This document shows positions 1 to 28,800 of a stretch of 64,000 nt of DNA, piece after piece. The position numbers and the translations under genes were made by a program. This stretch comes from Ruditapes philippinarum (lineage: Eukaryota). Numbering within the stretch: position 1 is the first letter of the stretch; each line of letters opens with the position of its first letter. The stretch covers positions 62,001-126,000 of the forward strand of contig NW_026862113.1 of NCBI RefSeq assembly GCF_026571515.1. The letters run 5' to 3'. The notes below the pieces were generated by a model. That model was given only the letters and a program-made list of their open reading frames with translations. It was not told the DNA's origin and did no database searches.

Positions 1-1306
1 GATGTTACCACAGGGTCTGGAAAGCCAAACAATGGTTACAATGGAGGGGCAAGTCATGCAGCAGTCTCTGGTGGTGAAAAAACTGTCTATGGAACATCAT
101 ACAACTCATTGTATAGACCAACAAGTGCTGGTAGCAGGGGGACTTATAATGTTATAACTAAAGAAAAAACTGGAGGTATGGGAGGGGGTTGGATACATAC
201 AAAGATCGGAAACCTATTGATAAATGATGGTACCATTTCAGCAGATGGTGCAAAGGCTACATCAAATGGTGGAGGAGGTAGTGGGGGAAGTGTTCTTATT
301 GAAGTTTATGAGTTTGAAGGATATGGAAAGATTTCTGTCATAGGTGGAGCAGGCTGGAGTAGCAATGGTGCTGGATCAGGAGGAAGGGTAGCAGTTAATT
401 GTACTCTTGTAATTGAATTTGAGGGAAACTACATAATGTATGGAGGGATTGGGGCAAATGATTTACAGAGTGCAGGAGGTGGCACAGTCTATCTAGAGGA
501 TATTAGGTCATCCAGAGCATACAAGCGTCTTCTACTTGACAACCATGGTAGACCTTGGGACAAATATGCAACTATAGATGAAAGTTTTACCTACCATTAC
601 TTTGATGAAATGCATCTTGTGAATAAAGCTACAGTCCACATGGTGGAAGATAACAGGAAATCTTTACTGGAAGTTGACAAGGTGTTTGGAGATGGTACAG
701 GTTTAATTCAAGTGCATAAAAACCAGGTCTTGAAGGCGGAATACAGACCTTTGATAAGAAATGCATTCCTTACTGCAGTAAACTTCATTATTGATTATGA
801 ATCAGAAGTATTTTTCCCATCTATAATGTATGTTTATGGTGAAGGAGTCTTGATGACTGGCCAGACTGAGTCTAGGTCTTTAGCTATGTTTGGGAGACTG
901 ACTGGAATAGCAGACATGATTCTTGGGTTTGAAACCTTGCTTTATTTTGGAGATCATGCTCACACAGCAGGTATTGATGCAGATACTCAGACCTATTCAA
1001 ACATTCAGCCAGAAGGAACTGTTATATTCGGAACGCTTGATTTGAGAAGTTACTCTGAGATAAAGTATTCCCCAGATAAGACTGTGTTACAAAAGATTGC
1101 TAAAATTGATGCAAGATACCAGTCTAAAATCTCAGCAGAGAGCATTACAATAGAATGTGGTATACTGAACATAGAAGCTGGGGCTACATTGACGTCATCG
1201 GCTATATATAGACCACAGGATACATTAGATGAACAGTTGGGCAAGGGAGGAGATTCAACTGGAGGAAATGGTGCTACAGGTGGAGGCTATGCTTCAATGG
1301 GTGGAG
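1..1306 (+). CDS. Exon 1 (5' truncated): Gly-rich/beta repeat unit
   Basis: Open frame from base 1 (DVTTGSGKPNNGYNGGASHA...GGGSGGSVLIE...GSGGRVAV...). Donor G|gtaagt at 1307, phase 1. Confidence 0.9.
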
Positions 1307-4300
1307 GTAAGTGATTTAATTAGTGTTTTTTGGGTTTGTTTTTTTTAGTATTTAAATAGTGACCAGATTTATATGGTCAAAAATAATGTTTGATTGAAAC
1401 ACAAAGGGTTTTGAATGATATAAATTAACCTATATATTTGTTATATATCGTTATAATTTTTAAGGTTTTATAGATATTTACCCATATTTTCTACTTATAT
1501 TTCATGGATTTGCATAGTTGTCTTATTGCTTTAGATAGAGAATTTGTTATAATTATATTGTAAGCTTGAAGCTACTCTTCCAGTCATGTGTGTACAGATT
1601 ACAGGGCATATAAACACTATTTTTATCAATATTTAAGGGTTGTACAGCAGTGATCTGTCAGTGATAACTGGAGGAGGAAACTATTACGGCAGTCTGTACC
1701 TACCTAAACACAGAGGTAGTAAAGGTGGATCTGGAGTAAACAGTCCCAGTGGCACTGGTGGAGGTGTCATTAAACTTAAGGTACATGTCTTGTAGTCATC
1801 TTAAAGGTGAATGCCTCCGGATGGGCCAAAATATTTCTGAAAAAATTAAACTTACTACTACTTTAAGAAAAGTAAACAAACAACAATTTACATGTTATGT
1901 ACATGTACAACTAAGTATTGATTTTGGGGTCTTTATCACCATATTTCTAGTGCGTGACTAATGCAGTAATTGCTATTTTTGCTTTTTTGACCTCTTTATC
2001 GGAAATTTACATGTACATGTTTTAATTGTTAGGGCTGTTTGCAATGTGTAAATTACTTAATTTGTTCATTTTACAATGTTTTACTTTAAAATACTTTTTC
2101 AAAATTTTCATGACAATTTGCATGAATCCTGAGACATGCTGCTTTAATGTTGACTTTTTAACCCTTACCTTCCAAAATTTGTAAAATTGACATCATTTTG
2201 TTTAGACACTAAATGGAAGGGATTTTTGAAAGCCATTAGTATATTGTCTGGTCAGATTTCATGCATGTGTAGGCAAGGCTAGTGGCTTTAGTATGTCAAT
2301 ACTGTTACTGGAATCAAATAAAGAGAATGTTTATTGATAACTTCATTATGAATGACATTTTAGGTGGCTACAGACCTTCTTGTAGATGGTACAATATCAG
2401 TGGATGGCTCACATGGCAGTATAAGTGGTAAATCTGGTGGTGGTAGTGGTGGAACTATTTTCATTGAGTATGTTTACAGCTGTTTTCATATCTTAAAAGT
2501 AATTCAACCTTGTTCTTGGACTTGAGGCACTTTATCAATTTAAATGCTAGTATTCTTCTTGACTTCTCTTGGTTTCCAAGTTTAAGTGACATGTCCATTC
2601 AAGGGTACATAGTGAGTAAACAGGAAAATGTCAAAATAAGTACATTTTGCCATGTTTCCTTTTAAATATATAATTAACTTCACTGTAAATAACTCGTGTG
2701 ATCAAAGAAAATTTCAATAAATATCTATCAGCATTTACCAGTAACGTTCAGTTTATAAAAAGAGTGGGATAGTCTTTGTATATTTTATTTCAGCTGTATA
2801 ATTTATCTTTTCAATCACCATCATAGATATATATAGTCAATTCAGCTCAACTTGAGAATGAAAAAATGAGCATAATGTCACTCTTAGCAAGGATTTTTAA
2901 GTTAAAACTTTCTATTTCTTTTACTGAGAAAAACAGTGGTCTGTAAAATATAAATATATATTATAAGATAGTTGTATTCATGTTTCTTTTTCATTTAAAA
3001 ATATATATTTTTCTTGTGTCACAGGTCGATCAACCTTGAAGGTCATGGTGTCATACAATCACAGGGTGGGGATGGTTACAGTGGAGGAGCAGGGGGTAGA
3101 ATTGCAGTGTATCTTGATACACAGGTGTATTACCATGGAAAATATCAGTCTCTTGGTGGGGATGGTAATGGACAATATCTCTCACAAGGTGGACCTGGTT
3201 CTGTCTACATACAGGATACAAGGTTTGACTGTCTTAATTTTTACCTATAATTTGTGAAGCTGTATCTGTGGTTAAACACACAAGTTCTAAGACATAATTC
3301 TGCATACAGGATCAGAGATAGCCAGCACACCAGAAATTTCCAACTGCTTGAAACAAACCTACTTGAGTAATAAATTAGATAGGCTGTGAGATATTTTTGA
3401 AAGATGTTATTTTAAGATGTTATAAGTATTACATGCTTTTCAGTGAATAGTGAAAGTTATATTTTGATAATTTCACAGTGAAATTATAAAATGTTTTTCA
3501 CTTTAGCAGGACTATTATCTGAATGTGGAGCAAAAGAATATTTCTTAAAAAGGTGGAAATATTGTTAAAAATAGACTCTGATGTGCTTCATAACAAGAGG
3601 CACATAAATATCTGCAAATACGATTTTAAAACTGTTACAAAATTTGTACAATTTTACAGAATTACTTTTTAACATTTGATGATGTCATAAATGAGACCAG
3701 ATGTCGGATCATTGCTATTATAAATCAGTAATAAAAAATATTTTAAAACCCCTAAAAGACATGAAATAAGTAGAAAATTTGTTTCTTTTTTATGTAAGAT
3801 CAAATTATATTTTGCTTCTGAATGCCAGCTCTTATATTTTCGCTCATAATTATGCCATTCTTGAAAATATTACATCTGGTTTTCACTTTGTAAAATATAT
3901 AAATCTTGTATTCAAAAACAAACAAATATCCTCTACATTTTAGTTGATGAATTTAATACCTTTATAACATAATTCTACTTAGTGCCTAAGTTATAGTACA
4001 TGTGTTTATTGCTTTATTTATCTCATTGTCACATATTTTATAGTCTTTTTTAAGACAAATTTGAGATTATATATTCAACCATATGATACCATGCTAAATT
4101 TGTGAACTGGTGTTTTCAAATGTAATGTAAATGTTCTTCACTAATGTTTAGAAGATGGACCCGGATATTGAAATCAAAATGACAGAAGTCTGTGAGTAGC
4201 CAATTGTATAGTGTACTATAGTGTGTTAGGAAAACTCAATTACCTAGACTGGCTCTATACTGGTAGGCAAATCACTCTTGCTGTAGAAATTTAAAATTAA

Positions 4301-7300
4301 AGCCTGATAGCAAATACTTTTCATGAATATGTTTTTTCAACAAATTTGCAATTTTGGTAAACTTTTTAAATTAAATTTTAGATATTCTCGAAAATATGAA
4401 CAACTTCATATAGACAATAAAGGAAGGTCATGGGATCATCAGTACATACTTGATGAAATAGATAATGGCGCCTCCAAGGATAATTACTACTTTGACGAGA
4501 TTTATATAACCCGGAACGCGTCAGTTCAACTAAAATCTGGAGACAATTTACTGAGAAACCTAACATGTAACAAGATTTTCGGTGATGCTTCAGGAAGAGT
4601 TTATTTAAGGGTAAGTTATGGTTTTGGGAACAAGTCTGGGTGGGCTTACTGAGAAAATTAAGCTGTTTAGATAAATTATGAATAACAGTTTTCACAACAA
4701 CAGCCATATTAGACGATCATTAATTACAATAGTGATTGGGAATTTTGCATACTCCATTTTAGGAAAAAGTGGAAATTTTTGCATTTGGGAATGGGTCTGT
4801 AAGTTTACAAGAAATCTAAAGAAGGCGGAAAACTCTGGTCTATCATATGATTTTTTCATTGTGTACAGTTGAACTTTATTAATATTAATTAATTTATTTA
4901 TTTCAATTAATATCTTTCATGGAGAATAAATGATCACCTTAGTACAAGAACATAATAAGTCCTAAATTTAACAGCAATTAATCAGTTATTGCACTAAGAT
5001 GATGATATATCATTTCAAACAACATATTTAAAAGATATTGACTGTCAGAAATAAGGAACACTGTTATGGTATTTAGGCATTAGAATTTAAGCATTAGACT
5101 GTTCTATTGATATAAGCTGTCTTTTACAGGCCAACCAGACAGCTTTCTTAGAAGAGTACCAGACACTGACTAAACTACCAATTAACTTATGGATAGACCA
5201 AGGTGCTCGAGCGTACCTCTCACCTCTCATCTATATCCTCGGCCTCGGGGAAATAGCTCTTAAATGGAATGGAGAAATGGTCAGTGTGCGTCACATTAGG
5301 ATCATCCCTGGACGGGTCATTAATATCGAAAGACAAGCTATGACGAGTCTAATTGAGGATGGTAAATTAATAGTTGGTATACCAGGAGCATTCCAATTTG
5401 CATCTATGGAATTAGGTGCCACTGCTCTGATGGAATTGCCTCCACCCATGCCACTGTTGTTGACAGTTGGCATATTGGTAATTTTATGTTTTGTTATGAA
5501 AATTTTATTACAATTTTATTGTATTTATTATACTAAGTGGTACATTTGGTTCATTTAAGCAAAGATTTTTTTTTTATATTTTACTTGGGGGTGGGCCATT
5601 GGGGAGGGTTCTAGGGGTGTTTTACTTTTTATAATCTGAGAAAATAAATACATATTTATTTAGATATGTAACATGCCATTTCAAAACTTCTTTTTAAAAG
5701 ATAATTCCTCTTTTAAAAGATTTAAAACATATTTATTTAGATATGTAACATGCAATTTCAAAACTTCTTTTTAAAGGATAATTCCTCTTTTAAAAGATTT
5801 AAAATTGTTATTTTCTTTGTATTTGGATGTTTCAAATTAAAAAACAACAACAATAAAATGAAAAAAAAGAACAGTTGACTTAACCTTATCATTTTTAACA
5901 GGATATCAAATACGACTCGCGATTTAAGGCAGATTCCTTCCAAGTTCTAGCCACAGATTTCTACCTGGAACCTCTTGCTCAGTTTGTGTGTATAGGGACT
6001 TCACGTGAATCTCAAACTGGAGACTCACCAAACATTGGTGCTGGCGCTGGACATGCCACTGTTGGTGGTGGATGTGAGTGCCATCTTTTATTTCTTGAAC
6101 TTCCGACTTTTGCTTTAAAAACAATATATTTATAAAATGACACATTTTTTATGCGAAGCACTTTATGTTACAGCAGATGAATAATTATATACATGTGTTG
6201 CATTTAATTTATCTGTAAAAGCCAAAATTAAACAATTTTGGTCTCATTTATTAGTATTCCAACTCATTAAAGGGTTATGAGTGATGATAAGCTGCACGTT
6301 TCGGCTTATTTTTTTACAATTTCAGGCTGTCCAGCGTCCCTAAAATTCCTAAAAAATCCTAATTTTTTTCAGTTTGGCTAAAATTCCTAAAAAAATGAAA
6401 AATTCAAAGGGAATTCCTAAAAAAGCCCTATTTTTTAACTTAAATTCCTATTTTTTTTATCTTTTGTGATAAACATATCGCGAAACAACCATATTTCAAT
6501 CACAAATTCAGTCAGTGGAGTTGATGTCATGTCTGACTTAAAATGGCATAAAGTCACATGTTGTATTTACTTCAATGCCATACTTGATTAATTACCAGAT
6601 GTTATCAGAAAAATAATAACTGTTTGTTTTAAATGGAACAATGAAAATTGTCAGACTTTGACTATATCAAAATAATCACCTGTTTAAAATTGTGATAAAA
6701 ATTTTTCCAAGGAAGTTACATTTTTATTGGCTACAGAGTTTTACCATTTGCCTCAGTCTCAGGTGTATTTAAAGCAAATCTTTACATGATGAAACTACTA
6801 AATATCATCAAACTTTATGTAGGGGTCCTTACTAATAAAATCTGAATTTGTAATCAAGTTATTTTCAAGTGGTGACTGTAGAACAGATCTTTTGTAAGTG
6901 ATACCAGCTGGCAGATCTAGACAAGTTTCCATTGCTAATTATAAAGTGGGTAAGGTAAACTGGTAGTAATGATTGGATGCTTAAACCCTTTTGGTACCTA
7001 ATTAGGGTATTAAGAAGTGACACCTCCAGTTGCCCTTTTTGTACACATTAACATGTACTGAACATATGTTATAACATATAGTGTAAGTTTTTGAAAATCT
7101 GGAAAAAAAAACTGTTGAAAGTCATTGAAAAAACTGACATTGTTGTGAAATTTCTACAATTTTTAGTAGCCTGGTTTAATTGTCTTAAACAAATTCTTCA
7201 TAGGTGAATACCCTGCTGTTTGAATTTAAGTTTAAATATTCCTGGAAATGACTTGAGTGGGTCATATTGTTTTTATTGTTTTTTAAGAAAGATCAAGACT

Positions 7301-10300
7301 TGTTCCATAAAATGTATAAATGTTGATAAATAAATAGCTAAAATAAATCTAAAGCATACTTTTCCCTTTCCATTTTTTATTGGCTATTTTCCTTTATTTA
7401 CCCTAAAATTCCTAATTTTAGCCCTAATTTTTTTTAAAAATTGCCCTAAAATTTGCCCTAATTTTTTGTGAGAAGGTGCTGGACAGCCTGCAATTTATAT
7501 CATATTTCATGACAAGCTAGTTCTTTATTGTGTAATTGTTTTCAAACTCATACATTTTGAATGAAACTAAATTATGATGTACCAGTAAGCTGTTTTTAAT
7601 TAAGAATAATTTTATAATAATTGAACTTATTCAAAAAATGTTAAAAGATATTTAGTGTAACAGGGATTCTAACTCCTTAATTTATGTGATTCCATTGCCT
7701 ATGTCTATCTTTCAATATCCTATTACATTTCTTAGTTGGTGGTGATCCTACAGTTGGTGGAGTTGCATATGGATCTATATATAAACCAAGTCAGACTGGC
7801 AGTGTGGGGGGCGGAGCTAATGGTGGGCGTGGAGGAGGCAGAGTAAAAATTCGGGTACCAGCTGAATTCTTATTGGATGGTAAAATTCTAGTAGATGGAG
7901 CAAATGGTGGAACAAGCAGTGGAGGGGGAAGTGGGGCTCAATCTTCATTGAATAAGGTGTAAATTTAATTGTTATAAAATTTTTCAATTATATTTTTATG
8001 TTATAAAATTTTTATTTTCCCCGGAGATATAAATTGTCCCAAAAAATTTTTTTGACCCAATTTATATGGGTCATATACCCCTAGTCTTGAATAGTAATAC
8101 AATTTTATGTCTATTATGATTTTTTTTTTTAACCAGGGGGCATGTCAGGACATGGTAAAGTGTCATCTGTTGGTGGTAAAGGTGACCGGTCAGCAGGTGG
8201 GGGTGCTGGAGGAAGGATTGCCATCCATACCTGGGATTCAAACCTCTACAAGGGGGAGTTGCTGGCCTATGGTTCAGGTGGTACCACTGATGGTGATGTA
8301 GGGGGGCCTGGCACAGTCTTTGTAGAAGATAAGCTGGATGCTTACACATACCAGAGCAGGTTTGATGTTTAATGCTTGTCATGTTTCATACATTAACCCT
8401 TAAAGTGCTGGAACCAAAAGCATTAAGCCTTTGCCACCAGTATAGAGCCAGGCCAGCCTGCACGTCCGTGCAGTCTGACCAGGCTCTATACTGTTGGCTG
8501 ACAAACTTTAATTATTCAAATTGATATCCCTAAAATTGATAATGGACAGTCCCAAAAATGGAAGTGGGACAAGTCCATTTAAAATATTCAGCATGTTCAG
8601 GGTTAATTTTATGCTAGGATAAATACTCAGTTTAACACAATATTTGTTGAGTTTGATGTCTTTTTGTTTAGAATTTAATTGGCAAATACTGTTAGTTTTC
8701 TCACCTTCACAACATGATTTTTTGGTATTTAATGTATACTCTAACAGCAACAAAAAAGCAATTTAGAATATTAAGTGTAACATGTATATACATTTAGAAG
8801 AATATACATTTAGAAGAATTGTGAGGGTTAATTTCAATAAATGTTATTGAGAGAAGAAAGTTTTGAACTTAAATCTTTCTGACAATTTTGTATGAGAACT
8901 GTGCGATTGTTTGGTTTACTTAATATTCAACTATTTTCAACTATTTTCAAAGAAGGAAATTAGTAATTAATGTTCATATATATATATATGTAAAACAACA
9001 ACAACAAAAAGAACACTTGTATTACTATTAACTATAGATAGTTACCAAGACTTGATAAATATCATAAAAAATATTATTAGGACTTGTATGGCAAAATGAA
9101 AACATTGATACTTCCTAAATTTCTTTTTTAATAAATATACTTCTCTTCTCTATAGGCTATACATAGATGGACGAAACTTGAAGGTACCTAAACCCCTGGT
9201 GATAAATGAAATAAACCCCAGACATATTAAACAGGCAGCCGATGGTTTACAAACGTCAAACAATGCTCAACTTGACTTTGAGCATGTTATGCTCAGTCAA
9301 CGTGTAAGTTTTTAAAAAAATTATCATTCTTAGAGATTGGTACAGGTTTCAGAAATAATAAGAGAGAGATTTAAGTAATGGTGGTTATTTTTGTTACTCG
9401 AATTCATATTTAACTTTTCAGCCTGTATCTCTAGATCAGAAATTTCCTCTACACTGCATAAGTTTCTAAATAAACATGACTTGTACTGTACTGTGGTGGT
9501 AGGAGGGGGATGGTATTATGTAGTTAGCAGAAAGGACCACCAGAGAAACTGTCACTTGTTTAAACTTTTTTTCACCACCAGTTGTTATGAGAATTAATTT
9601 TTACTGGGATTGTTTCAATTGATATTCAGCAGGTCATATATAAAACATTGGTACCAGTTTGCACCCTTTACTTGACATTCTATAATAAATTGCAGATATA
9701 AGGCACTCTTTCTTTTTCTGTGGTACACTGTATATTTGGGTTGAATTGGTCATGAACAGTTACCTTCTTTTACTTTAATGTTAAATCAAATATAAGGCTA
9801 ATATTATATCAATTATATAATTGACAGATGTTAATTGCATACAGGTAATGAATTCTCATCACTTATACAGCATCGATATCAAATAAGAGGTTATTGTACA
9901 TTGTTGAGTACAAAACTGAATTTTATTGAACAACAGAACACCAACTTGTCAGTAAATCATGTAATATATGTATATAAAACCTCTTTTTCAGGCCATGTTA
10001 GAAATAGGTCCAGGAAAAGATAATATCACTACTGTGAACATTGACCTAATGATGGGAGATAGGACAGGATATTTACACATGAAAGGTGGACAAACATCAT
10101 ACCTGGAATATTCTCAATACTCTATTCTACGATCAACACCACCAGTTAACTTCCAAATAGATCAAGGGTCACAGATCTGGTTGTCTTCAGATTTCAAGGT
10201 CATTGGAAATCATGTTCCTGCCTTCCAGGTATGTATTTAAGATTAGCAAAAGCATCTTTTTGATAAATCTTCAACAAGGTTAGAAATCTGGTAAGAAGAA

Positions 10301-13300
10301 ATCAAAGGTTCATAGAAATCATTTCATAGTTATGGATGTGTAAGACTTTGATAAAGAAAAAAATCAATTTGAAATAAGAATGTCTTTAAGTAGAACTTGA
10401 ATGGCAACTTTTTGTGTCGCCTGAAAAGGTGACATATAGGGATAACTTTTGTCGGCGGTGTCGGCGTCGGTGTCGGCGACGCAGTTGTCGGCGTCGGCGT
10501 CCCCTAAAGCTTGTCCGGAGCATAACTCAGTCACTTTAAGTTGGATTGACTTCAAACTTGGTATGCATGCTTCTTTCAATAACACAAAGTGCAGTGCTTA
10601 AGGACCGGTACTCTGCACTTCTTAATTTTTGAGTTATTGCCCTTTGTAAATTTTCATACTTTAAATTTTGTCCGGCCATTTCTCTTCAACTATAAAAGCT
10701 TATGGACTTTCAAACTTCATACAATGATAGATCTCATTAAGAAGAAGTGCATTGCACAAGAATTGGATATTGCACTTCCTAATTTTTGAGTTATTTCCCT
10801 TTGTTAATTTTCATACTTTATTTTTGTCCGGGCCATTTCTACTAATGTATAAAAGCTATGGACTTGAAAACTTCATAGGATGATAGATCTCATTTAAGAA
10901 GAAGTGCAATGCACAAGAACTGTTACTCAGCATTTCTTATATTTTTAATTATTGCCCTTTGTTAATTTTCATACTTTATTTTTGTCCGGGCCATTTCTCC
11001 GAAAGTATAAAAGCTTTGGACTTGAAACTTCATAGGATGATAGATCTCATTAAGAAGAAGTGCAGTGCCAAGAACCGGTACTCTGCATTTCTTATTTTTT
11101 GAGTTATGGCCCTTTGTTAATTTTCATACTTTATTTTTGTCCAGGTCATTTCTCCTCAAGTATGAAAGCTATACACATGAAACTTCATAGGATGATAGAT
11201 CTCATTAAAAATAATTGCAATGTACAAGGACCGGTACTCTGCATTTCTTATTTTTGAGTTTTCACCCTTTATATATTTTCATACTTTATTTTTGACCAGG
11301 CCATTTCTCATAAATTATAAAAGATATGGACTTGAAACTTCATAGAATGATAGATCTTATTGATAAGAAGTGGTGCAGTGCATAGAAACTGCTGCTCTGC
11401 ACTTATTATTTTTTGAGTTATTGCCCTTTGTTAGTTTTTGTATTTCATTTTTGTCCTGGCCATTTGTCCTAAACTATATTGTTGACAAGGCGACACATCC
11501 GACTCGCGGAGTTCTAGTCTTAAATAAAAGCCAATTGTCAAAAAACTTGATGAAATGGTTTTATGGTTTTACTTGAAGTTTCATTTCTTTTTCTTCTAGC
11601 TTGATGGTTTGTTAATTGGTGTTTTAAATCTAACTCTAGAAGAGGACCGGAAAATGTACATTTCTGACTCGGCATCGAATGGAAGAATTATCAACGGGAA
11701 GCTAGAAACATTTGAAAATGGTATGTTAAAGTGTCTTTCAAAAATATGTTAAGAAGTGACAAATGTACAGAGGTATTAGATAAATTAATGAACCACAATT
11801 GCAGACTGGATGACATTACTATCATAATATAATTTTCCTGTTATTGTTGCTGCTACTTTTAAATTTTGCCTGTGCAGCTAGGCATTTTGAAATATTTCAC
11901 GGTAGGAAACTAACTGACTGGTTGCAAAAAAATGGTATTGGTTCTACTAAGGTTCCATTTATGATAGAAATGATGCTCAGAGGATCATTTTTGGGAGTTC
12001 CCTAACCAAATTTAAATCTGTATTGATAGTGTTATGTTAAAGTGACTTTAAACTCGACCAAACATAAGGATAGGTAAAGATTAAAAAATAAAGGCATTTT
12101 GTTTCAAGAAAATTTTGATTTTGTAGACTGACAAGCTATAAATTTAGGTCATTAGATTCCTTATTTTATATTTATCTATTTTAATCTTTGATCAACCAAT
12201 TTTTGAATCTGAGATGCCAAATCTTACCAGCTTGTGAGTTTATGATTATTGGCTAAAACATGTTTTTTCCAGGAGTCCTAGGCATAGGAAGACTTGCAAT
12301 GCAAGCAGACTCACTTATCAGACATGATGACTATTTCAACTTTGAGGCTTCAGATATTCACATGAGGTACAATTCTAAAATCCTCGCAAAGAGAATAACT
12401 GTTATAGCAGGCAATATTCATATGGAAGGAGAGGCCACCTTTGATACTACAGGTATATTGATTGTAATTTAATATTTTATGAGATATTTATTATATTGTG
12501 GGCCAGTTTTGTAATCTGTGTGGCTTTAAAAGTTTGAAAGGAGGTGGTCATAGAAACCAATTTGTATTGTAAACTTGGTGATATTTAGCTGGTTTCCTTT
12601 ATTCTAAATGATTAGCGAAGGGTAAATATGCATGTATATATGTAAGCTGTCAGTAGATCTACAATGATCAGCTGATAATAAATTTATCTCCATTAAAAGA
12701 AAATGCACCTAGAAAGCTGTACAGGACTTTGCAAAACAGCCATGCTATGATTATTTTCTTCATATTGTTTTGTTGAATATAAAAGAGTGGACATTCTCTG
12801 CAGCTGATTAAGATTACTAACAACAAAATAAAACACACAAAAAAGGCCAAATTAAAACTGGACATAGAATGTTAAGAACACTAAGACCAAATTCCAATTA
12901 TTTTATGCTGAAATTAAAATCTATGATTAATTAAAACATGAAGCTTTGATATTGATTTCTTATCAATTATTTGTATGCATTAAATAGAAATGTTTGATGT
13001 AACAGAATTTACCTTTTAAATGTTTGATCACTGTCACCCATGAAGTGGGATTATCTTTAAATATATGTAACAAAGTAAACACTACTCACTTGTATGAGAT
13101 ACATGTACATGCACTTGTAGGACGTGGAGGAGAAGGAACTGTAGAAAATACACAAGGAGGTGAAATCAATGTGAAGTATGCGGCCGATCTAACTACTGTA
13201 GTTAGCAGTGTGGGTCTAGGTGCTGGTCATGGCGGTTATGGTGGTGGGGCTGATCATGATAATTACAACTCTGGTATGTTACACAATATTTGATACCTAT

Positions 13301-16300: not shown

Positions 16301-19300
16301 CCAGACCCCAATTTTGGTGGATACCCGTACAACTCCCACAAAACACCTCTTGAAGCAGGAAGTGGCGGAGGCAATGGGGGTGGTGTTGGGGGATCAGGAG
16401 GAGGATATTTAGAATGGGATGCTGGTGACTTGATAGAAATCAATGGATATTTGACTGTGGCAGGTTCTAATGGAGTTGGTGGGAATGCTGGTGGTGGTAG
16501 TGGTGGGAGCATTTTAATGTATGCAACAAATATAACAGGACATGGGATAATGGCGGTTAATGGAGGAAATGGTATAGGGAAAGGTGGTGGAGGTTCAGGT
16601 GGAAGAATATCAATCAGATGTGAAATGCGTTACTCCTATGGTGGTCAGTATCTTAATTACGGGGGAGATGGTTCTGGAAGTTACAGAAGTAAACATGCTG
16701 GTGCCTCAGGTACTACTTACAAAGAAGAGAACTTGAGAGAACTTGAATATCGTCATAAGAAGTATGACCCAGTGCACAATACCACTTTTCTTGATGTAGA
16801 CCACAAAATGATTCATTCTGATAATCGTCTGAAGTACAGCCCTGCCCCTACATTAATACAGGACCCTCCAATGAAATGCTATGAGTTTGATGAAATGGAA
16901 ATCACAGGTTCGACAGTCACATGGATATACAATTGCTCAATACCAGTTCCAACCGGATCTACTTTCACCTGGATAGAATATTGCTCAGGTGATGTTCCAA
17001 GTGTAAATGAGTCTTTATACAACTGCTCTAATACATACTTTGTAGAACTTGTAGCTCATAAATTCATAGGAGACAAAACTGGTACTCTACACGTTAGGGA
17101 ATATCAAAGAGCATGGGTAGAATACATTGAATCTATCTCCAACATTACAGAGGCTCCTGTAAGTTACATTATTTATGATAATTCAGAAATTGTTTTTCCA
17201 TCTGAAGTACATATTCATGGAACAAATAGCACATTTGCTGGTCTTATAACTGGAGTGCATAGTTTATATATTGAAGATGCTGCAAGAGCTGAATTCAAAA
17301 GTACAGGAAACACATCATTCCTTGAAAATGGAGAACATTTCAGAGCTACAAATCCTAGTCATTTTGCATGGGATCAACTACACATTAAAAGAAATGGATA
17401 TGCTGGATTTTTAGATATTGAAGAGTTCAGTTTAGAAATTAGTGAAATCAAGGTCAAATATCAAGGAAATCTATACATGAATGCTGCAAAAATTAATAGC
17501 ACTTACTCATGGATTGAAAGTGAAGGTGTATTCCATCTAAATGGACATGGGTCAGCTGCAGAGGCAGGGTTTGGTGGTGGTTTTACCAGGTCTGGTGTAG
17601 GATATGGTGGTGCTCATGGCGGTTACGGTGGTGGACCTGATCCTACAATTGCACCTCATCCATATGGCAGCATCTTGATACCGAAAAAGGATGGCAGTGG
17701 TGGTGGAAATGGTGGAGGAAAAGGCGGTAGTGGTGGAGGAGTTTTACACTGGATAAATAGCCATTACTTTGAACTGCATGGTCTACTTGCTCTACAGGGA
17801 ACCAATGGAATAGGAAATAATGCAGGGGGAGGCAGTGGTGGTTCCCTGCTCATTGAGACAATGAACTTTACTGGACATGGGATAATTGATACAGCAGGTG
17901 GGGATGGTTCTGGTAAAGGGGGCGGAGGTTCAGGTGGCAGAGCTGCTATACATTGTGAAGTAAGAGTTCAAACTTTTTCTTGAAAGAATTATCATAAATA
18001 TTTTTGGTATATAGATATTTTGATTTAACCTTATTAAGGCAAGGTTTGCTAGTTCTATAGAAATTAATTGCATTTAAAAGCAGACCTTTTGATTGATATG
18101 TTTTTAAGTACACATTTTACATTTGCAAAACAGTAATAGTAAATCATCTGATTGGAAATATCAACTTTTGAAAGCATTAGCTAAATGTTTTATTAAATTA
18201 TGCATATGTTAATATGTGATAACTTTGTGTTGAAAACATAACTGACACTTTCAGCCAATGAATTCACTGGACAGTAGGTTCAACTTAATTTGCACTTCAT
18301 TAAGATACATGATGCTGTCTTTTTAATTTTTGTTACTTAATATCTTGCTTTTACTGCTAAGAATCGATAAATTGTTTTTGATTTTTTTGTACGAAACAGA
18401 ATTTTTTTCCCAATGTTCTGCTTAAATATTTTAACCAGTGGTGTATCCAATGGGGTATGATTCAAAATAAGAATCATTGCACATTTGATTTCAGTGGAGA
18501 TATTGGTATGGTGGTTCATTTTTGAATGAAGGTGGTATAGGTGGTACCATAGATACCAAGCACAGTCATGCAGGGGCAGCAGGCACAACTTATGTGAAAA
18601 ACAATAGGAGACCTTTAGAGTACAGGATACTAAAATACATGAAAGGATCAAATATCACTTACTTTGAGGTCGATCACAGGTTTGTTGAAATTTTGTTTGC
18701 TAACCAAAAATGTTTGATAAAGCCCTCATGTGGCTGAAAATTTAAAATAATTTATAAAATAGTTAAGTTTTGAAAATAAAATGCTTGTAAAGTCTTAAAA
18801 GTCTGAAATTTCCATTTTCTTGATTATCATTGAAACAAGGTTGACTTTATATTTGAAACATATCTGAAAGATCACGAGCTTAAACAGCAGACCAGATTTC
18901 ACATCTTTTTAAGGCATTTTGATAAAGCTTTTATAATAGTGTTATAGTACCTAATTGGTACAATCAAAGTTTATTATGACCTGTTTCAAACCTAATTTGA
19001 GATATCAATTTTTTTAATACTATTATCTGTACAATTATATCTTTCTTTTGGCTTTAGAAATGACTTTTAAATGTCCTTAAGCTACCCCCTTTCCCACTTA
19101 TCATAGCCAATTTCTATCAAAGACATTGATGGGGTTATGAATTACATTGAGTATTTCCGGTATATATTAAATTTATCTTTGTAGATACTTACACATGGAT
19201 AATAAGGGCATTAAGTCTCCAGTACCTACCATGGTAATGGAAAATGAAACAGCTGTATATGAACTAGATGAAATGCAAGTTGATGGATTCGTAAGGGTAT

Positions 19301-22300
19301 TATTTTATCACCCTGAAAACAACATTGTCAATGTTACCATACACAGATTTATTGGGGATCGCTCAGGCCAAGTTCACATCAGATCAAAACAAATAATATA
19401 CATAGAATATGTGGAATCAGAAACAAATGTCACCGAAGCTCCTGTAAGTTACATTATAGATCAGGGAGCTGAAGTTATCTTTCCAACAGAAGTTCATATG
19501 CAAGGGATTAACACTACCCTTAATGGCCTGATAGTAGGCGTGCACCATTTATATATCGAGGATGGATGTACACTTACTGTACTCAGTGAGGCTACAACTG
19601 CTCAACTTCAAGATGAAGAGTATATTGATGTCACAAAGCCTGGTCAGTTCGAATTGCCGACAATTAATATAAGAATGGATGGAATTTTGGAATTTAGAAA
19701 AATATTATCAGACATTACAATTGGTGCTGCTTTCCTTGAACTTAAATATGGTGGATTGGTATTAATGAATCATGGTTATGTGGTAGCTGGGGATGTTGAT
19801 TTGGAATCAAACAGCAAGTTTAGTCTTGAAGGTAAAGGTTTTAAAGCTGAAGATGGACCTGGAAAAGGTATTGGGAATATGGGAGGAAGTTATGGTGGAG
19901 TTGGAGGTGGTGCTGATGACTACAAAGCTTATGGTTCAGTGTTTGATCCTATTAATCTTGGCAGTGGTGGTGGCGGTATTTCCACAGGAGGATCTGGAGG
20001 AGGCTTCGTTGAACTTTACGATAGGAAAGTCATTCCATATTGATGGCATTGTGGATGCATATGGACAAGATGCCAGTAGTAACGGAGGTGGTGGTAGTGG
20101 TGGAACAATCTTCATAAAGGCCTACAACATGTCAGGTTATGGCACATTGGATGTTTCAGGGGGAGATGGTAGTGGAACAGGATATGGCGGAAGTGGAGGT
20201 AGAATTGCTGCTCATATAGAAAGTTTTAATCTATATGCTGGTAAATATCTCTCGCATGGAGGCACAAGTGGCAAAAATGATGCACAAAATGCAGGTGGTC
20301 CAGGAACAATATACAAGTTTGAGTCAAATAGAGGTCCACAATATCGTGAACTTAAATACAATCCTAGACTAAACAGAACTTTAATAGAACCAGAACACAG
20401 AAAACTTACTGTTGAGAATTTTAACTTGAAAACTACCAACCCAGCTGTTGTCATGGAGACAGATAGTATGTATTATGAGTTTGAAGAAGTACAAGTAGAA
20501 GGTTACAGCTATGTTCATTTTTACCATCCTCGCACTGTTCACGTTGTACAGGTGAAAATTCACGAGTTAACAGGCAACAAACAGGGCATGATTAGGGTAC
20601 AAAATAATCAACAGTTGATGATACATTATGTAGAATCCACTCATACGTATCTGGATACTCCATGTGGTTTCCATGTCGACAAAGATGGTGAAATAATTCT
20701 GCCTTCTACAGTTGTCATGCTAACAGAGAAAACCATCCTCGGCGGAACGATGATCAACGTTGAGGAACTAATAATTGAAAGGAATGCTGAATTTATTATT
20801 GATAATGATGCCTCTACTCTAGCTGTTACAGATTTTAAGTTTGGAATATTGCAAACACCTACTCCTGGTATATTTGATGTTGCTATAATATCAATAAACT
20901 ATAAAGGTTTATTTACAACAAATATGAATCCCTATCATGTAACGATAATGTCAGGACTGTTGACTGTACGTAATGGTGGAAAACTAGCAGCAAAAACTCA
21001 AAGGGTTACCTTGGAAACAGCAGATCTAGATGTGGAATATGGAGGACTTATTGATGGCACAGGTCAAGGATATGAGAAAGCTATAGGACCTGGGAAAGGA
21101 GTTGCAAGTTCTTATGATGCTAGTGGAGGCGGGCTTGCCAGTAAAGGTAATGTTGTTTTCTTCCTTCTAATCCTATCATTAAATGTTCTAACTTCAAGAA
21201 AGCTATATGATGCTTAGATCTTACTAATTTTATTTTATACTAATAAGTTTTAAAGACTTTTTAGGTTATAGGTGCAAAATTTCAGATTTTTTGCTGTGGA
21301 ATAATAATAATTCTTAATGTGAAAAATGTCCCAAAATTGAAAAGTCTATTATGCAAGGCATTTCAATCAAATCTGGCTAAGAATATCCCACATGTGATTT
21401 TTAATATATTTCTGTGTACGATTCTTTATTATCTTTTGCAAATCTTTCGGTTTTATATGACCCTGTCGATCATAATGTAAGAAGTTCAAATTTTATACTT
21501 TTAGGCTTTTGGACCTTAGTGGAGGTCCTTTAATGATAATAAATATTCAATGTTCAATTAAATTGCTTCTCAAACACAATGTATAATTCAATCTGTCATC
21601 CAGGTGGCAGTAGCCAACATGGGGCAGTAGGAGGATCATACTATGGAACAACAAACTGTGATGGGTTTCATTATGGCAGTGGAGGTGGTGGTGAACATGG
21701 GGGTGCAGGAGGAAGTTACATAGAAATCAATGCTGGGACTGTAAGTTTCCTTCTTTTTTTGTTACAATAGAAATATGAATCCTACAAGATATGTTGGTAT
21801 TCTTATATACCTATACATATTTCTGTGCATTTTAGGAATAAACTGCAAACTTAGTATAAGACTACATATTGTGGTTATGATTGAGGTTGTAAGCTCATAT
21901 GCTACTGTAAGACAATAATACAGTGGATGAAATGACATTAATTTTCTTGAAAAATTACTTTAAAATTAACAATTTAAACAACGGTAATATTTGCAAGAAT
22001 AATGTCTGACATGCTTTTGGTGTTCAGATTTGAACATCCCCATGACAGATATTACTATTTCATTATTGACACATGATTGATATTGCAAAAAATTTACAAT
22101 TTAAGCGACTAACACTGTATGGTACCATATCTGTGAATGGAGAAGCTGGTCTAGCTGGTAATTATAGAGGTGGTGGTGGAAGTGGTGGTACAATCAAGGT
22201 CAAGGCTAGTACACTTGTAGGACGAGGAATCTTCTCAAGCATTGGTGGTTCTGCATCAACTGGAAAATACAATAATGTAATTGTTGGTGAGTAAACATTA

Positions 22301-22828
22301 AAGGTTTATTTTTATGAACATATATATGAAGCAGATGTTATTTAAAATTTTTATATATGCTTTTCATTATTTCTTTTGTTCGCAATTTGTAGTAAATATA
22401 AAGTTCTTTCTCAGCATCATGGTAACTACATATAGAATTTGAATATCGTATTTGTTGTCATGGAAACATACTTGATAAATTCATTCTCAGAGTTATTAAA
22501 AAGTTTCTTATACTTAGTCAAAGAGAAAATTGCAGTCTCTGAGCCAGTAAAATTGAAATTTATATCAAATTTTTTGAAATACAGTGTAGATCATTTCTAC
22601 CATCTTTTATAGTAAAACTACCTTCTTTTTTAGTAAAATTGAAAATATCTGTCTTAGCATAAGTAAAATAGTCTGAACATCTTTCTTAACAAAATAGGAA
22701 GTTTACCTCATTGTTAAAACAAAATTGAAAAGGGTTATTATACATACATGTATGTGCATACCCAAAAGTAGAAGAGCTAGGTTTTTGTGTCGCCTCTACG
22801 GAGTAGTGGCGACATATAGGGATCACTT

Positions 22829-22862
<34 letters not shown>

Positions 22863-25800
22863 CGTCCGTCTGTCTGTCCGTCCGTCCGTCACAAAAATTG
22901 TCCGGACTACTCCTCATAAACTACTGGTGCAATTTCATCCAAACTTTACAGGAATGATCAGTACCAAGTCTAGTTGTGCATATTGTCAGCATTTTCCGGT
23001 TCAATGATTTTTGTCAGAGTTATGGCCCTTTAATAATTTTTAATTTTAAAGTTTGTCCGGACTACTTCTCTTATACCACTAATGCAATTTCAATGAAACT
23101 TTACAGGATTGATCTGTAGCTCAAGTCCTTGCGCATATGCACGGGTTTTTCCGGTTGAATGATTTTGGCCGAGTTATGGCCCTTTGATAAAAAGGTTTCT
23201 TTTTCTGTGTGTTGCCAGATACACAAAAGCTTGTCCGGACTACTCCTCATAAACTACTGGTGCAATTTCATCCAAAACTTTACACGAATGATCAGTACCA
23301 AGTCTAGTTGTGCATATTGTCAGCATTTTCTGGTTCAATGATTTTTGTTTCAGTTATGGCCCTTTAACAATTTTTATTTTTAAAGTTTGTCCAGACTACT
23401 TTTCTTATACCACTTATGCAATTTCAATGAAACTTTACAGGATTGATCTGTAGCTCAAGTCCTTGCGCATATTGCACGGGTTTTCTGGTTGAATGATTTT
23501 TGGCCGAGTTATGGCCCTTTGATAAAAAGGTGTTTTTTTCTGTGTGTTGCCAGATACACAAAAGCTTGTCCGGACTACTCCTCATAAACTACTGGTGCAA
23601 TTTTATCCAAACTTTACAGGAATGATCAGTACAAAGTTGTTAGTCTAGTTGTGCACTGTCCGTCTGTCTGTCCGTCTGTCACAAAATTTGTCCCAACATG
23701 AAATTGGCCATCATGAGGCGACACATGTGATTACTGATCGCTCTTGTTAATAAATATTCCTTACTTGTTCCGAAGTTATCGTGTGTTCCTCTCATATTAG
23801 TTACTTTAGAAATTGAAAATTAGATAGAAAACTATACTGGTTGGGACCATCAACCAGACACTTTTGAACATTTTTTTCATACAGATTTCATAATTTCAAA
23901 CAGAGAGACCTGAAAATTTGACACAGTACAGCTAGGTTCTTCTCCTAACTAACAAACTAGATTATATTGATACTTATATCTGAGGCTCGTTAAGGAGGGT
24001 ATCAAAATTACCTAAATTGTCTACACTACAGTACCATGTGTCCAGACAGATATGTGTATGATGTGATTTAATTCTGTTAAATGCTTGGGTATTTTAATTT
24101 TTCATTATAAACATGATAAACAATATTTCAGCAGCAATTGCTAAAGTTTTGGATATTCTTTTGTTTACTCTGCAAATGATTATAGCTGGTATGTCAGGTC
24201 AGGTATTGCACTCTTAATGCCCAAATTTTCAACATCAACATTCTTGAACGACATTGAAATATCACTGTTGAAATAAATTTAATTACTTATTTATAGAAAA
24301 AACATGCATTTATTGTTCTTAAGAAAAGTGTCTGATAGATCGACAACCAATGAACAAAGAAAAAAAACTAAATTAAGCATTTTTGGGACCGTCCGGGTTA
24401 GGTGGTTGTCCAGTTTTGGTGGTCCCCAACCAGTACCTCATTTTAAAAAAAAACATAGAAAATTTCGATTTAAGTGTTAATAAAATAGAAAAACTAATAC
24501 ATTTTTTAAGTAAAATATAAATCATCCATTTTAGTGTTAGTAAAATTTAGGAAAATAGAAAATTTCTACCTTATAGATGTTATCCGGAACTAGGCAAATG
24601 TGGGTTTTTCCCAGCTAATCTGTAGGTACAAACTAACTTTAACCATTATAGCTTCACGATGCACTGAACGTCACAATAGATAAGTAAACCTGTTTCACTA
24701 ATTTTCGAAGCTGTAACTGTAAAAAGTTTGTTTGTACCTATGGATTAGCTGGGAAAAAACCAAATATTCTTAATTCCGGAGTAAGTCTATTTAAAAATTA
24801 AAGCATGACATGTATATATATACATCAACATTGATTACAGGAAATGGTGGGGGATCAGGAGGTAGAATCTGTGCGTATCTCTTAGAGTCTCTAAGATTCC
24901 TAGGCTCATTTATCGCTCTCGGTGGAAATAGCGCCACCTATCATGGCTCACCAGGAACAGTATGGATAAAATCTACAACAGGGTCAGATGTAACAACTCA
25001 CCTGTGGGTTGACAATGGAATGAGGTCTTTAGACTGTGGGAAATATCCTGTTTATATTGATGAAACCAGCATAAATCACTTCCATCCTATGAGACAAGCA
25101 TGTGTTTATCCTACAAAGGTAATTTTTGAAGAAGGAAATTTGTGAATGAATAAATTGTTAGTTATGTCCTATTGTATTGTAACGCATGTAAATTTAAAAT
25201 TCAGGAGAACTATAAAATCAGATTATGTAAATATAAAGAATAAGTCAAATTCAAAATTTCCATAAAAAGTTTCTCATACTTCATTCAAGCAGTTAAAACC
25301 GAAAGTTATTCTTATTTTTGTTTTAAGCTAGCTTACGGGAAGTCCGTGGTTCCACTCAGCTTGGTGCCCATTTGTGCTTGAAATATTGTACAGAAAGGCA
25401 CCTGAGGTCTTCCTCCACTAGTAAAAGCTAGAAAGTCACCATATAACCTATTCTGTGTTGGTGTGACATAAATCCCAATAAAACAAAACAAACAAACAAA
25501 TTTTTGTTTCAAGATAAATGTTAATTTTAAGGTTTTTATTGCATTTATAGGACACCATAGTTGAACACATAGGTGGAGATGGTACAGGTGCACTTAGAAT
25601 TAATACTGGAGTCACACTGGATATTGCTCAAGATAAAATGCTCACATACATACAGTCTTCCCTGTACATATATGGAACAGTGAACTTTCCCACTACAACA
25701 TATATTGAACAGTATGTCCATAATGAAGGTTATATTGTTGGGGTTGGACACTGGTATTCTCGCGGTCATACATATTTAATGGCAAATGGGCAGTCCAGTT

Positions 25801-28800
25801 GTTCTATAGTAGCCCCACATGCTGGAAACTATCACTTCCTTACATTTACTACCATGTATGGTGGGTATTTCAGCTTAGTTGATTCCAATAATCAGTACAA
25901 TGTAAACAGAAGCATTGCAGTATTCACTGACGTATTTCGTATGGAAGGTACTGCTCATGGATATATTGAGAAATCTGGAAATGTAATGGGTAGGGTATTA
26001 GAATTTGCAAAACGGGCTAAAATAGATGGGAATGCAAGAGGTTATACAGCAAAATCTGGGTCAGGTGCAGGATGTTCCAGTGGCTGTGGCTCTGGTGGTG
26101 GGCATGGAGGGAGTGGTGGAAGTTGTTCCAATGAGTGTGGTTCAGATTGCAGTGGAGGAGGAGCATATGACAGCACAGTTTTACCATCTTTGTCAGGCAG
26201 TGGTGGGGGATCTTGTTCCCATACCTCAGGTGGTACTGGTGGTTCTGCAGTAAGACTGGTACATACCTTTAGTGTTGTAGAAGGCACTCTAACAATGAAT
26301 GGCGGTCACGGTTCAGGTGGTAGTGGAGGAGGGGCAGGAGGATCTATTTGGCTTGATGGGGATATTGTTGCCGGTTGGGGATCATTTCATGCAAATGGGG
26401 GTTCAGCTGGTAGTGATAGATGTTCGTCACATTGGTCACATTGGCACCGAGGAGGGGGAGGAGCTGGTGGGAGAGTTAGAACATGGGGATCAGAATACAC
26501 CAGTAAGGTTCTACTTCAACAGAGATCTGTATCAGGTGGAACTGGAGCCAAGGCACATGGTTCAGGCGGATCAACATACAGATATCACGGTGCCGCATGT
26601 AGTGGACATGGAACATGGAAAGGATCATCATGTCAGTGTTATGATGGGTATGTAGGTCACGACTGCCAGTTTTCCTGCCACAATGTTAATACATGTGGTG
26701 CCCATGGTGTCTGTAATAATGAAGGAAAGTGTAACTGTACCACTGGTTATGTTGGAGAACGTTGTGAAAGCCAATGTCACAGAGATACAGATTGTAATGG
26801 ACACGGGGAATGCTCCCCTTGCGGAACATGCATATGTCATCCTTGTTTCTCTGGCCCAGACTGCTCAATCGAGTGTAGCAAATCGGGATCATGCATAGCA
26901 GATCAATGTGTTTGCGATGACTGCCATCTTGGAGTATTGTGTGAATCAGAATGCAACAATCATGGAACATGTAACACTACAACCAATGCCTGTATATGTG
27001 ATGCAAATTGGGGTGGAAAAAAGTGTACAAATAAAGGATGTCCTGGAGAAGATCTTAACTGTAATGGACATGGTATTTGTAACTCAGGGACAGGTGAATG
27101 CTTCTGTGACAATGGATGGAGAGGTAGGATATTCATCATATATTTCAAGTAGCAAAATACTTATTTAGTCACTCAAAGGATGAGCATGAATAATACTTTT
27201 TTTTCTTTAGACTGCTAATTCATTTTTGTTAATGTTGATAAAAAACAACATACAGTAGAACTTCTATGAGTCGAACTTCGATTAGTCGATTTTCTCGATG
27301 TGTCGAAGAAAAATGAAAGTCCCGATTTTTCCCGTTTATATTCCTTATAAAAACCTATTTATGAGTCGAGATTTTATGTGTCGAATTTTTCGATGTGTCG
27401 AAGTTTTTTCGTGGTCCATGTAAAGTAAATCTAGTGCAATTTACCACAAATAAGTTGAATTATTTTGACACCTTCGATCTCGAGACATTTTTCACACCTT
27501 ATCTGGCTGGGAAGACGATTTCCAATCAACTTATGTGACAGGTGTTAATTACATAGCCGTGTGTCAAACAGCCTTTGTTTGCGATAAAATGTGTGATAAA
27601 ATGCTTTAATTGTTTCTTGTATCATAGTTTGGAGACCTTTCTGTTGAAAATGTGTCAGGGTTAAATCGTATACATATACATGCACAGTGCGTTAACTGGA
27701 GTGCGGGTATTAGGTATTAGTTACCCGCACTCCAGAGCATACCCATTGATTGGCTCATTTTTGCTGGGGTTTACATATTGTGACGGCAGAGAAAGGGAAA
27801 GCGACAGAAATGTCATATTCAGATGTTCGTTCATTGGTTCATTTTTGCCGGGGTTTCATATTGTGACAACAGGGAATGTGCTTTTATGTTTGACTATGAT
27901 ACAAAAGAGAAAGAACACCAAAACACTCGGCAATCTGATTAATACTCGGGGGCTACGCCCCCTCGTACAAATCAGATAGCCTCGTGTTTCGGTGCTCTTT
28001 CTATTACTATTTTAATTGCCGTAGTGGTATTTGAAAGTAAACAGTAAACTACTTTCATTTGAAAACATCGGTAACCCGGTGTCGCATGAGAATAACACGC
28101 GAAATATTTACTATAAGCTGGTTTAGTTATCGCCCATTCTTGTTGTTACGCCTTTTGTAACTCTATTGTTTACGTGAACGGGTAATCCAAATAATTAGCC
28201 TTGAAAAAAAAAAATAACATACTATATTTATCATTGTAAAATGTAAAAATATCAGATTTATGATGGAAAAACATGAAATAGGTTTTGTTATAGATCTTAT
28301 AATTAGAACTAGTCACAGGTCGAAATTTTGTCACGGAATTGAGAGCAATTCATGACTCGAAGTCCCGATATGTCGAAGTTTTTACGCAAGTCCCTTCAAC
28401 TTCGACTTACCGAAGTTCCACTGTACTTTTAAAATCAAAATAATGCAGGACAATTATTGGAATTTTAAATTCTCCAAATATCATAACGAAATGATTTCTA
28501 TTTTTGTAATAACAGGAGCTGATTGTGGTGACCCAGATTGCCCAGGAGAGCCTAACTGTCATGGCCGTGGATTCTGTAACAAGCTTTTTAATCCCCCTAT
28601 CTGTACTGACTGTGACCAATACTGGATGGGTACAGGTTGTGGAGATGTTTGCAAGTATGGAACACCTATACAAGATAACACTGTGTGTAACTGTTCTAAA
28701 ACATGTTACCATGGTAAAGGATGTGACATAGAATGTTCTGGTCATGGTGTTTGCAGTTCTGACGGTTCAGGAGACTGTTATTGTGACCCACTAAAAGGAT

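Follow-up and report, generated by a model that had tools for sequence, protein, structure and literature searches.

A conserved giant protein of Ruditapes philippinarum with tandem units of predicted beta-helix and polyglycine II fold

Results

We analyzed a 64,000-nucleotide stretch of Ruditapes philippinarum DNA (contig NW_026862113.1, positions 62,001 to 126,000; hereafter the window) and found that it encodes part of a real, conserved and uncharacterised giant protein, a variant of known structural kinds. The window consists of AT-rich animal DNA and carries a single plus-strand gene running from base 1 to at least 62930. The spliced gene model (1..62930) comprises 46 exons in the window with AG/GT boundaries and matching phases, encodes ~8,470 amino acids and is open at both ends. 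We delimited 21 exons by AG/GT boundaries up to 27123; the 25 further exons downstream are all open and in phase. The last of them ends at a GT donor, indicating that the gene continues past the window. The model is colinear with relatives from Acropora (P0201, over 5,788 columns at 36%) and Amphiura (P0215, over 5,628 columns at 44.5%).

A first-pass annotation of this DNA had reported ten copies of a glycine-rich motif in exons 1, 4, 9, 15 (four copies), 17, 20 and 21. A six-frame scan reproduced this count, yielding ten matches to G[SAG]GGR[IVALM], all on the plus strand (positions 373, 3086, 8202, 14045, 15311, 16592, 17927, 20189, 24852 and 26460). The exon model places them in the exons named, and the accompanying sub-motifs keep the claimed order across units. 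Consecutive motifs are 414, 391, 421, 422, 427, 445, 407, 429 and 392 amino acids apart. In 1000 shuffles of the protein, the motif occurred 0.015 times on average and at most twice, versus the ten occurrences observed. Each of units 1-9 pairs a Gly module of ~175 aa with a beta segment of ~240 aa, with a period of ~415 residues, and pairwise identity among the window units is 23-46%. The part of the array inside the window comprises nine full units and one cap, unit 10 being a Gly module only.

All units lie on the plus strand. Unit 1 (1..1239, exon 1, motif at 373) consists of a Gly module cut by the window start plus its beta segment; unit 2 (1240..5985, motif at 3086) spans exons 1-7, and unit 3 (5986..13164, exons 7-14, motif at 8202) contains a frame break in exon 8. 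These are followed by units 4 (13165..14935, exons 14-15), 5 (14936..16216, exon 15), 6 (16217..17551, exon 15) and 7 (17552..19812, exons 15-17), by unit 8 (19813..21100, exon 17), which contains an extra base, by the divergent unit 9 (21101..26084, exons 17-21) and by the Cys-containing unit 10 (26085..26596), which caps the array. Unit 6 carries, at ~16930-17030, a Cys-containing insert with an internal near-duplication (STVTWIYNCS / STFTWIEYCS); the insert is absent from the relatives compared and is the sole region below pLDDT 50.

The extent first assigned to the array needed revision: the repeats are present in the window, but the array begins upstream of it. In an alignment with a Potamilus relative, residue 1 of the window protein pairs with residue 4131, and the HMM detects 10 more units in the Potamilus protein upstream of that point. 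The full protein is therefore likely to comprise at least 20 units and at least 12,600 residues.

Downstream of the repeats lies an EGF-like array of the teneurin/tenascin type (26597..52587, plus strand), ~1,780 aa long with 290 Cys and matched by Pfam EGF_TEN, EGF_2 and EGF_Teneurin; the window protein has ~50 EGF-like modules. Between this array and the first VWD is a small, unnamed non-EGF domain (VFRCVENIG...AWFGYENLNPNNIY; 53151..54077, plus strand), which is common to Acropora P0201 and Actinostola P0216 and gave no Pfam match above cut-off. A repeated VWD/LamG-like/EGF region (54918..62930, plus strand) follows, with four VWD and two Laminin_G_3 stretches in Pfam. No transmembrane helix was found across the ~8,470 window residues, both gene ends lying outside the window.

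Several introns contain tandem arrays (10587-11478, 22890-23637, 35714-36961, 39316-39967, 46614-48296 and 48425-49704) with periods of 145-171 bp or doubles of these, and several arrays are preceded by GTCC/GTCT microsatellites. The array at 10587-11478 occurs at very high copy in public sequencing runs. We take these arrays to resemble satellite-bearing non-autonomous transposons.

The reading frame is interrupted at two places, which we bridged with X in the protein model: exon 8 is one base short near 7935 and has an in-frame TAA at 7953, and exon 17 has one base extra near 20011. These two breaks and the stop could point to a pseudogene, with the window copy decaying, a reading that we find hardly credible. 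Each of the 25 exons downstream keeps an open, in-phase frame, and spliced contigs are present among those from four public runs that we mapped to 1600-21500. The predicted junction 13274>13781 is found in contigs of three of the four runs, the three (X6-X8) that we guessed to be RNA, and in one contig just 183 letters separate 17959 from 19183, an insert that matches exon 16 in size. Over 19183-20942, in exon 17, the same contig is one base shorter than the window and has a single gap. Variation also argues against decay: 23 of the 40 variants listed (767 more were recorded) lie in exons, and in 19 of the 22 codons touched they are synonymous. Neither break site is among the 12 indels listed (the table has 41 more rows), and the Mya gene model likewise has a short junction at the exon-8 break site. 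We consider assembly error likelier than decay for both breaks.

We predicted structures for units 5 and 6 and also folded the Gly module of unit 6 alone (16145-16738). The earlier proposal, a PGII bundle plus a beta-solenoid in each unit and a long rigid rod overall, was partly supported: the predicted models contain ordered, Gly-rich extended helices packed as a bundle of the PPII/PGII kind, and stacked coils of parallel strands forming a parallel beta-helix. On the strength of these models, we regard the beta-helix/PGII fold as very probable. With each ~415-residue repeat, the parallel beta-helix is predicted to run on without a break for a further stretch. Four successive turns per unit, extended by one long Gly-rich insert (~70 aa) and three ~16-aa hairpins, would pack into a PGII side bundle. 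The near-invariant Arg of GGR likely staples the bundle to the beta-helix. We estimate that ~15 coils at 4.8 A would give ~7 nm per unit, and that 20 or more units would form a rod of 140 nm or more.

Foldseek against PDB at E<=0.001 gave no match for either model, a further comparison of 10 chains yielded nothing more, Pfam at E<=0.1 assigned no family to four repeat-only pieces, and a PDB sequence search found none at E<=1 with a single unit and none at E<=10 with a profile. The top fold matches were beta-helix adhesins of two-partner-secretion (TPS) and autotransporter systems, at 10-19% identity. Three BFVD entries of giant virus/prasinovirus origin (A0A7S6NY19, A0A2I2L380 and S4VX73), two of them labelled collagen-like, have a predicted fold resembling the Gly module; going by these models, they may be PGII bundles rather than collagens.

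A search with unit 5 scored 7,999 candidates and retrieved 556 proteins, of which we examined the best 120. Among these 120, at least 103 show the ~415-aa period of the animal type, and 17 align over the Gly module only, with a ~250-270-aa period. Named full-unit relatives come from Acropora, Amphiura, Actinostola, Salpingoeca rosetta (PTSG_13036), Potamilus, Mya, Mactra, Solemya and Pecten; Amphiura, Actinostola, S. rosetta, Potamilus, Mya and Mactra are the six named among 806 candidates. Ptychodera, Saccoglossus and Cafeteria, three named among 20 looked up, extend this list. The closest relatives are those of Mya and Mactra (up to 75% identity per unit), which by itself points to a heterodont bivalve as the probable host. 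No vertebrate, arthropod or nematode appears among the few named matches. The beta segment alone matched 94 representatives among 1.84 billion.

Some relatives retain the termini that lie outside the window. Two divergent ones, P0281 (Saccoglossus) and P0302 (Cafeteria), begin with signal-peptide-like stretches, and P0281 has a weak N-terminal G8-like cap, below cut-off at E 0.0024. At the C-terminus of Actinostola P0216, VWD/LamG repeats are followed by a hydrophobic helix and a short tail. Pfam on relatives P0217, P0220, P0061 and P0100 gave weak, below-cut-off rows only. In P0281, an F5/8 type C domain is inserted after the first Gly module.

The bacterial-type matches P0102-P0120 (also L001 6001-12315) are ~2,050-2,130 aa long and have 7-8 Gly modules with a ~257-aa period, and some end in dockerin, Big_5 or carboxypeptidase-regulatory domains. 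One Gly-module-only match is named Verrucomicrobiae and has a carboxypeptidase-regulatory-like end; another ends in dockerin. P0102-P0120 are an uncharacterised surface family. Scanning prokaryote genomes with the window Gly module gave 25 pattern matches and no relatives, and scanning them with P0102 returned its own locus only.

We then compared the order of units between species. The best matches of window units 1-10 are Amphiura units 2-11, ten out of ten in order. In a quick IQ-TREE tree of 55 units, from which unit 10 and short units were left out, units group by position. Window U4 falls with units of Mactra, Potamilus, Amphiura and Acropora and with Salpingoeca unit 1 (SH-aLRT 100), U8 with Amphiura, Acropora and Salpingoeca unit 5 (SH-aLRT 95), and U6/U7 with Salpingoeca units 3 and 4 (SH-aLRT 99). 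The exceptions are Acropora units 4 and 5, which pair together, Salpingoeca unit 2, which has no resolved placement, window U1, which lies apart from its best matches in Mactra and Potamilus, and U9, which sits among long branches. As judged from these sequences, unit order appears to have been largely kept since before the animal/choanoflagellate split, and a fixed order suggests that each position has its own contacts. Recent horizontal transfer into this clam was ruled out by the position-wise tree.

The S. rosetta relative PTSG_13036 (P0217) is 9,774 nt long and has ~250-aa propeller-like inserts in its Gly modules. The metagenome proteins P0227, P0230 and P0240 share propeller-like inserts, and P0227 also has EGF and LamG domains. 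In the available portion of a published supplement (PMC10530576), EGD80128 is annotated with a propeller fold and has a CPM/TPM ratio that implies about 10 kb; the adjoining EGD80127 is annotated with EGF, VWD, cysteine-rich C8-type, ConA-like and FHA domains. By neighbours and length, EGD80128 is probably PTSG_13036 and EGD80127 its C-terminal half. If this mapping is right, the whole architecture predates animals. The FHA domain on EGD80127 hints at a signalling tail. EGD80102 was also considered as PTSG_13036 and ruled out, its TPM/CPM ratio implying a short gene. PTSG_13036 is expressed at 9.6-66 FPKM in eight of eight samples, according to the accessible part of a second supplement (PMC4054682).

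Discussion

We propose that the giant protein is a membrane-anchored, non-enzymatic cell-coat filament of beta-helix/PGII repeats, and we give this reading as a whole an even chance. Its C-terminal membrane anchor, suggested by the sequences of relatives, is fairly likely by itself; the relatives also suggest that the protein would be secreted and glycosylated. It would then be a type I surface glycoprotein whose base is VWD/LamG and whose stiff distal rod is held out on an EGF stalk of ~50 modules. Such a rod would act on the surface coat as a spacer, stiffener and cross-linker, and unit-specific loops would bind glycans, particles or neighbouring rods, like bacterial beta-helix adhesins.

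The protein could instead be secreted without an anchor as a matrix or mucus polymer, in which the VWD region would cross-link chains as in mucins, with the rods lending stiffness to a gel, cuticle or shell matrix. Four VWD stretches, ~8,470 window residues free of a transmembrane helix and an Acropora model that ends without one are consistent with this idea. However, the Acropora model may be truncated, Actinostola P0216 does have a terminal hydrophobic helix and short tail, and EGD80127, the putative C-terminal half in S. rosetta, is annotated in the supplement portion available with FHA, a normally cytoplasmic domain. We consider a secreted polymer unlikely. Distinctly unlikely is an array of polysaccharide-binding or -cleaving beta-helices (pectate-lyase, polygalacturonase or TMEM2-like) working on surface algal or bacterial glycans. 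Fold matches of these kinds rank under the adhesin helices, with an rmsd of about 5 A (TMEM2 3.4) and 4-10% identity; the window pieces scanned have no glycoside hydrolase or lyase Pfam match, and the conserved residues are spread along the unit sequence.

Recognition of microbes would offer another role, in which loops of the PGII bundles bind prey or pathogens, as in gp38, and the tail signals. Many of the named carrier organisms are particle feeders, and the anemone tail (Actinostola P0216) carries Tyr motifs. For gp38 itself, the available text attributes host range to variable loops of the PGII sandwich (PMC6851490). Yet unit order and identity are kept across phyla, and synonymous changes in 19 of the 22 codons, among the variants listed, are unlike diversifying immune genes, which makes a receptor of this kind very unlikely. 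A single beta-helix fits a width of ~3.5 nm, and S. rosetta carries the relative PTSG_13036; the protein might thus be the thin filament of the flagellar vane or collar mesh in collar cells and ciliated feeding epithelia. The vane filaments of S. rosetta are ~3.5 nm thick, proteinase K-resistant and of unknown composition, as far as the accessible text describes them (PMC9671500). Against this stand the supplement rows available for the probable models EGD80128 and EGD80127 (PMC10530576), which are flagged 0 for cilia mass spectrometry and, in the cRFXa mutant, show logFC of -0.06 and +0.03 (FDR 0.93 and 0.98). The micrometre span also exceeds one chain, and we judge the vane filament highly improbable. 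We also entertain, as a long shot, a pre-animal filament of 12,600+ residues whose 20+ position-specific units serve as a molecular ruler, pairing in register with neighbouring rods and building the thin mesh, resistant to proteases, that collar cells and ciliated feeding epithelia bear. If this were true, the protein would be the first protein component for a long-unidentified mesh (choanoflagellate collar or vane, bivalve gill coat).

As a cell-coat filament, the clam protein would be one of the largest animal surface proteins, one without a Pfam model and mislabelled tenascin-X, and a candidate addition to the ancestral animal cell coat. Neither the family nor a tandem beta-helix/PGII rod is described in the literature covered, which included few subscription papers and whose proteomic supplements may list relatives; searches for LOC107332625/XP_015752845 and PTSG_13036 returned no papers. 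The proposal is readily testable, since S. rosetta is open to genetic manipulation and one exon can hold a complete unit, and the protein could provide a natural stiff modular rod scaffold.

On the features tested, the clam protein falls outside the ALK/LTK, gp38, TPS, tenascin, teneurin or PKHD1 families. The Tenascin-X or TENX-like database label on relatives reflects a likeness in the long EGF array only: the window pieces have no FN3 or fibrinogen match, the EGF array gives way to VWD and LamG, and a hydrophobic helix lies at the end of the anemone relative. Teneurins are type II proteins with an NHL/YD shell after eight EGFs, whereas the clam protein matches EGF models only, with ~50 modules and no YD/NHL match. 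PKHD1L1/fibrocystin is, by analogy, the closest functional analogue in animals. At 4,249 aa, PKHD1L1 crosses the membrane once, carries beta-helix repeats and forms the coat of stereocilia, and the available part of its description (PMC6707252) contains no PGII repeats. IPT, G8 and PbH1-type Pfam models had no match on the window pieces at E<=0.1, and G8 appears in relatives below cut-off only.

The bacterial ~257-aa Gly repeats (Verrucomicrobia and others) contain the same motifs and align with HMM positions ~4-175 seven or eight times over, but their beta segment is short (~85 aa) and outside the HMM match. Plant DUF8003 clusters were an atlas lead (score 0.84), as were bacterial G8 clusters (0.84-0.90 overall). 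We take At5g11700 to be PELE. In the portion of its report available, PELE is a plant tonoplast protein, and glycine is not mentioned there (10.1101/2024.12.03.626687).

The ALK/LTK glycine-rich domain, which the first-pass annotation had invoked as a parallel, did not prove homologous by sequence or Pfam (four repeat-only pieces at E<=0.1; PDB at E<=1 for the unit and E<=10 for the profile), and the clam Gly bundles differ in having a beta-helix as host fold. ALK, a receptor kinase, has a single bundle that adjoins a TNF-like sandwich. Springtail GrAFP (7JJV) and the ALK/LTK domain form Gly-rich PPII bundles of 9 and 14 helices, according to the accessible text of PMC11364801. 7JJV superposes on the predicted model over 111 of its 126 residues, but GrAFP is a free bundle, whereas the clam bundles sit in a beta-helix. 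In the literature covered, eukaryotic PGII bundles are single domains (ALK, springtail antifreeze proteins); the clam unit would be repeated 20+ times.

The TPS and autotransporter adhesins (EtpA, FHA, HMW1, Ag43) differ from the clam array in its periodic PGII bundles and its eukaryotic EGF/VWD/LamG base, and neither a TPS domain nor an autotransporter C-terminal beta-barrel was matched by Pfam in eight window pieces, the gene ends being outside the window. Neither gp38 nor ALK/LTK is among the fold matches listed. No PDB sequence match links the clam units to gp38 or to its N-terminal gp37-attachment domain, and the clam gene is a spliced animal gene, not one in a phage tail context. In phage S16 gp38 (PDB 6F45), a PGII sandwich is built from extensions of beta-helix turns, 18 and 77 residues long, as the available text describes (PMC6851490). 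The clam units also bear one long and several short Gly inserts in beta-helix turns, a likeness of design only, drawn between a DSSP pattern and the available part of that description. By the same text, gp38 is one small tip protein in which two turns supply all 10 PGII helices, whereas the clam unit would use four turns and be repeated 20+ times in an animal surface protein. Judging from the predicted models, the clam protein would work like a beta-helix adhesin rod with gp38-type PGII inserts.
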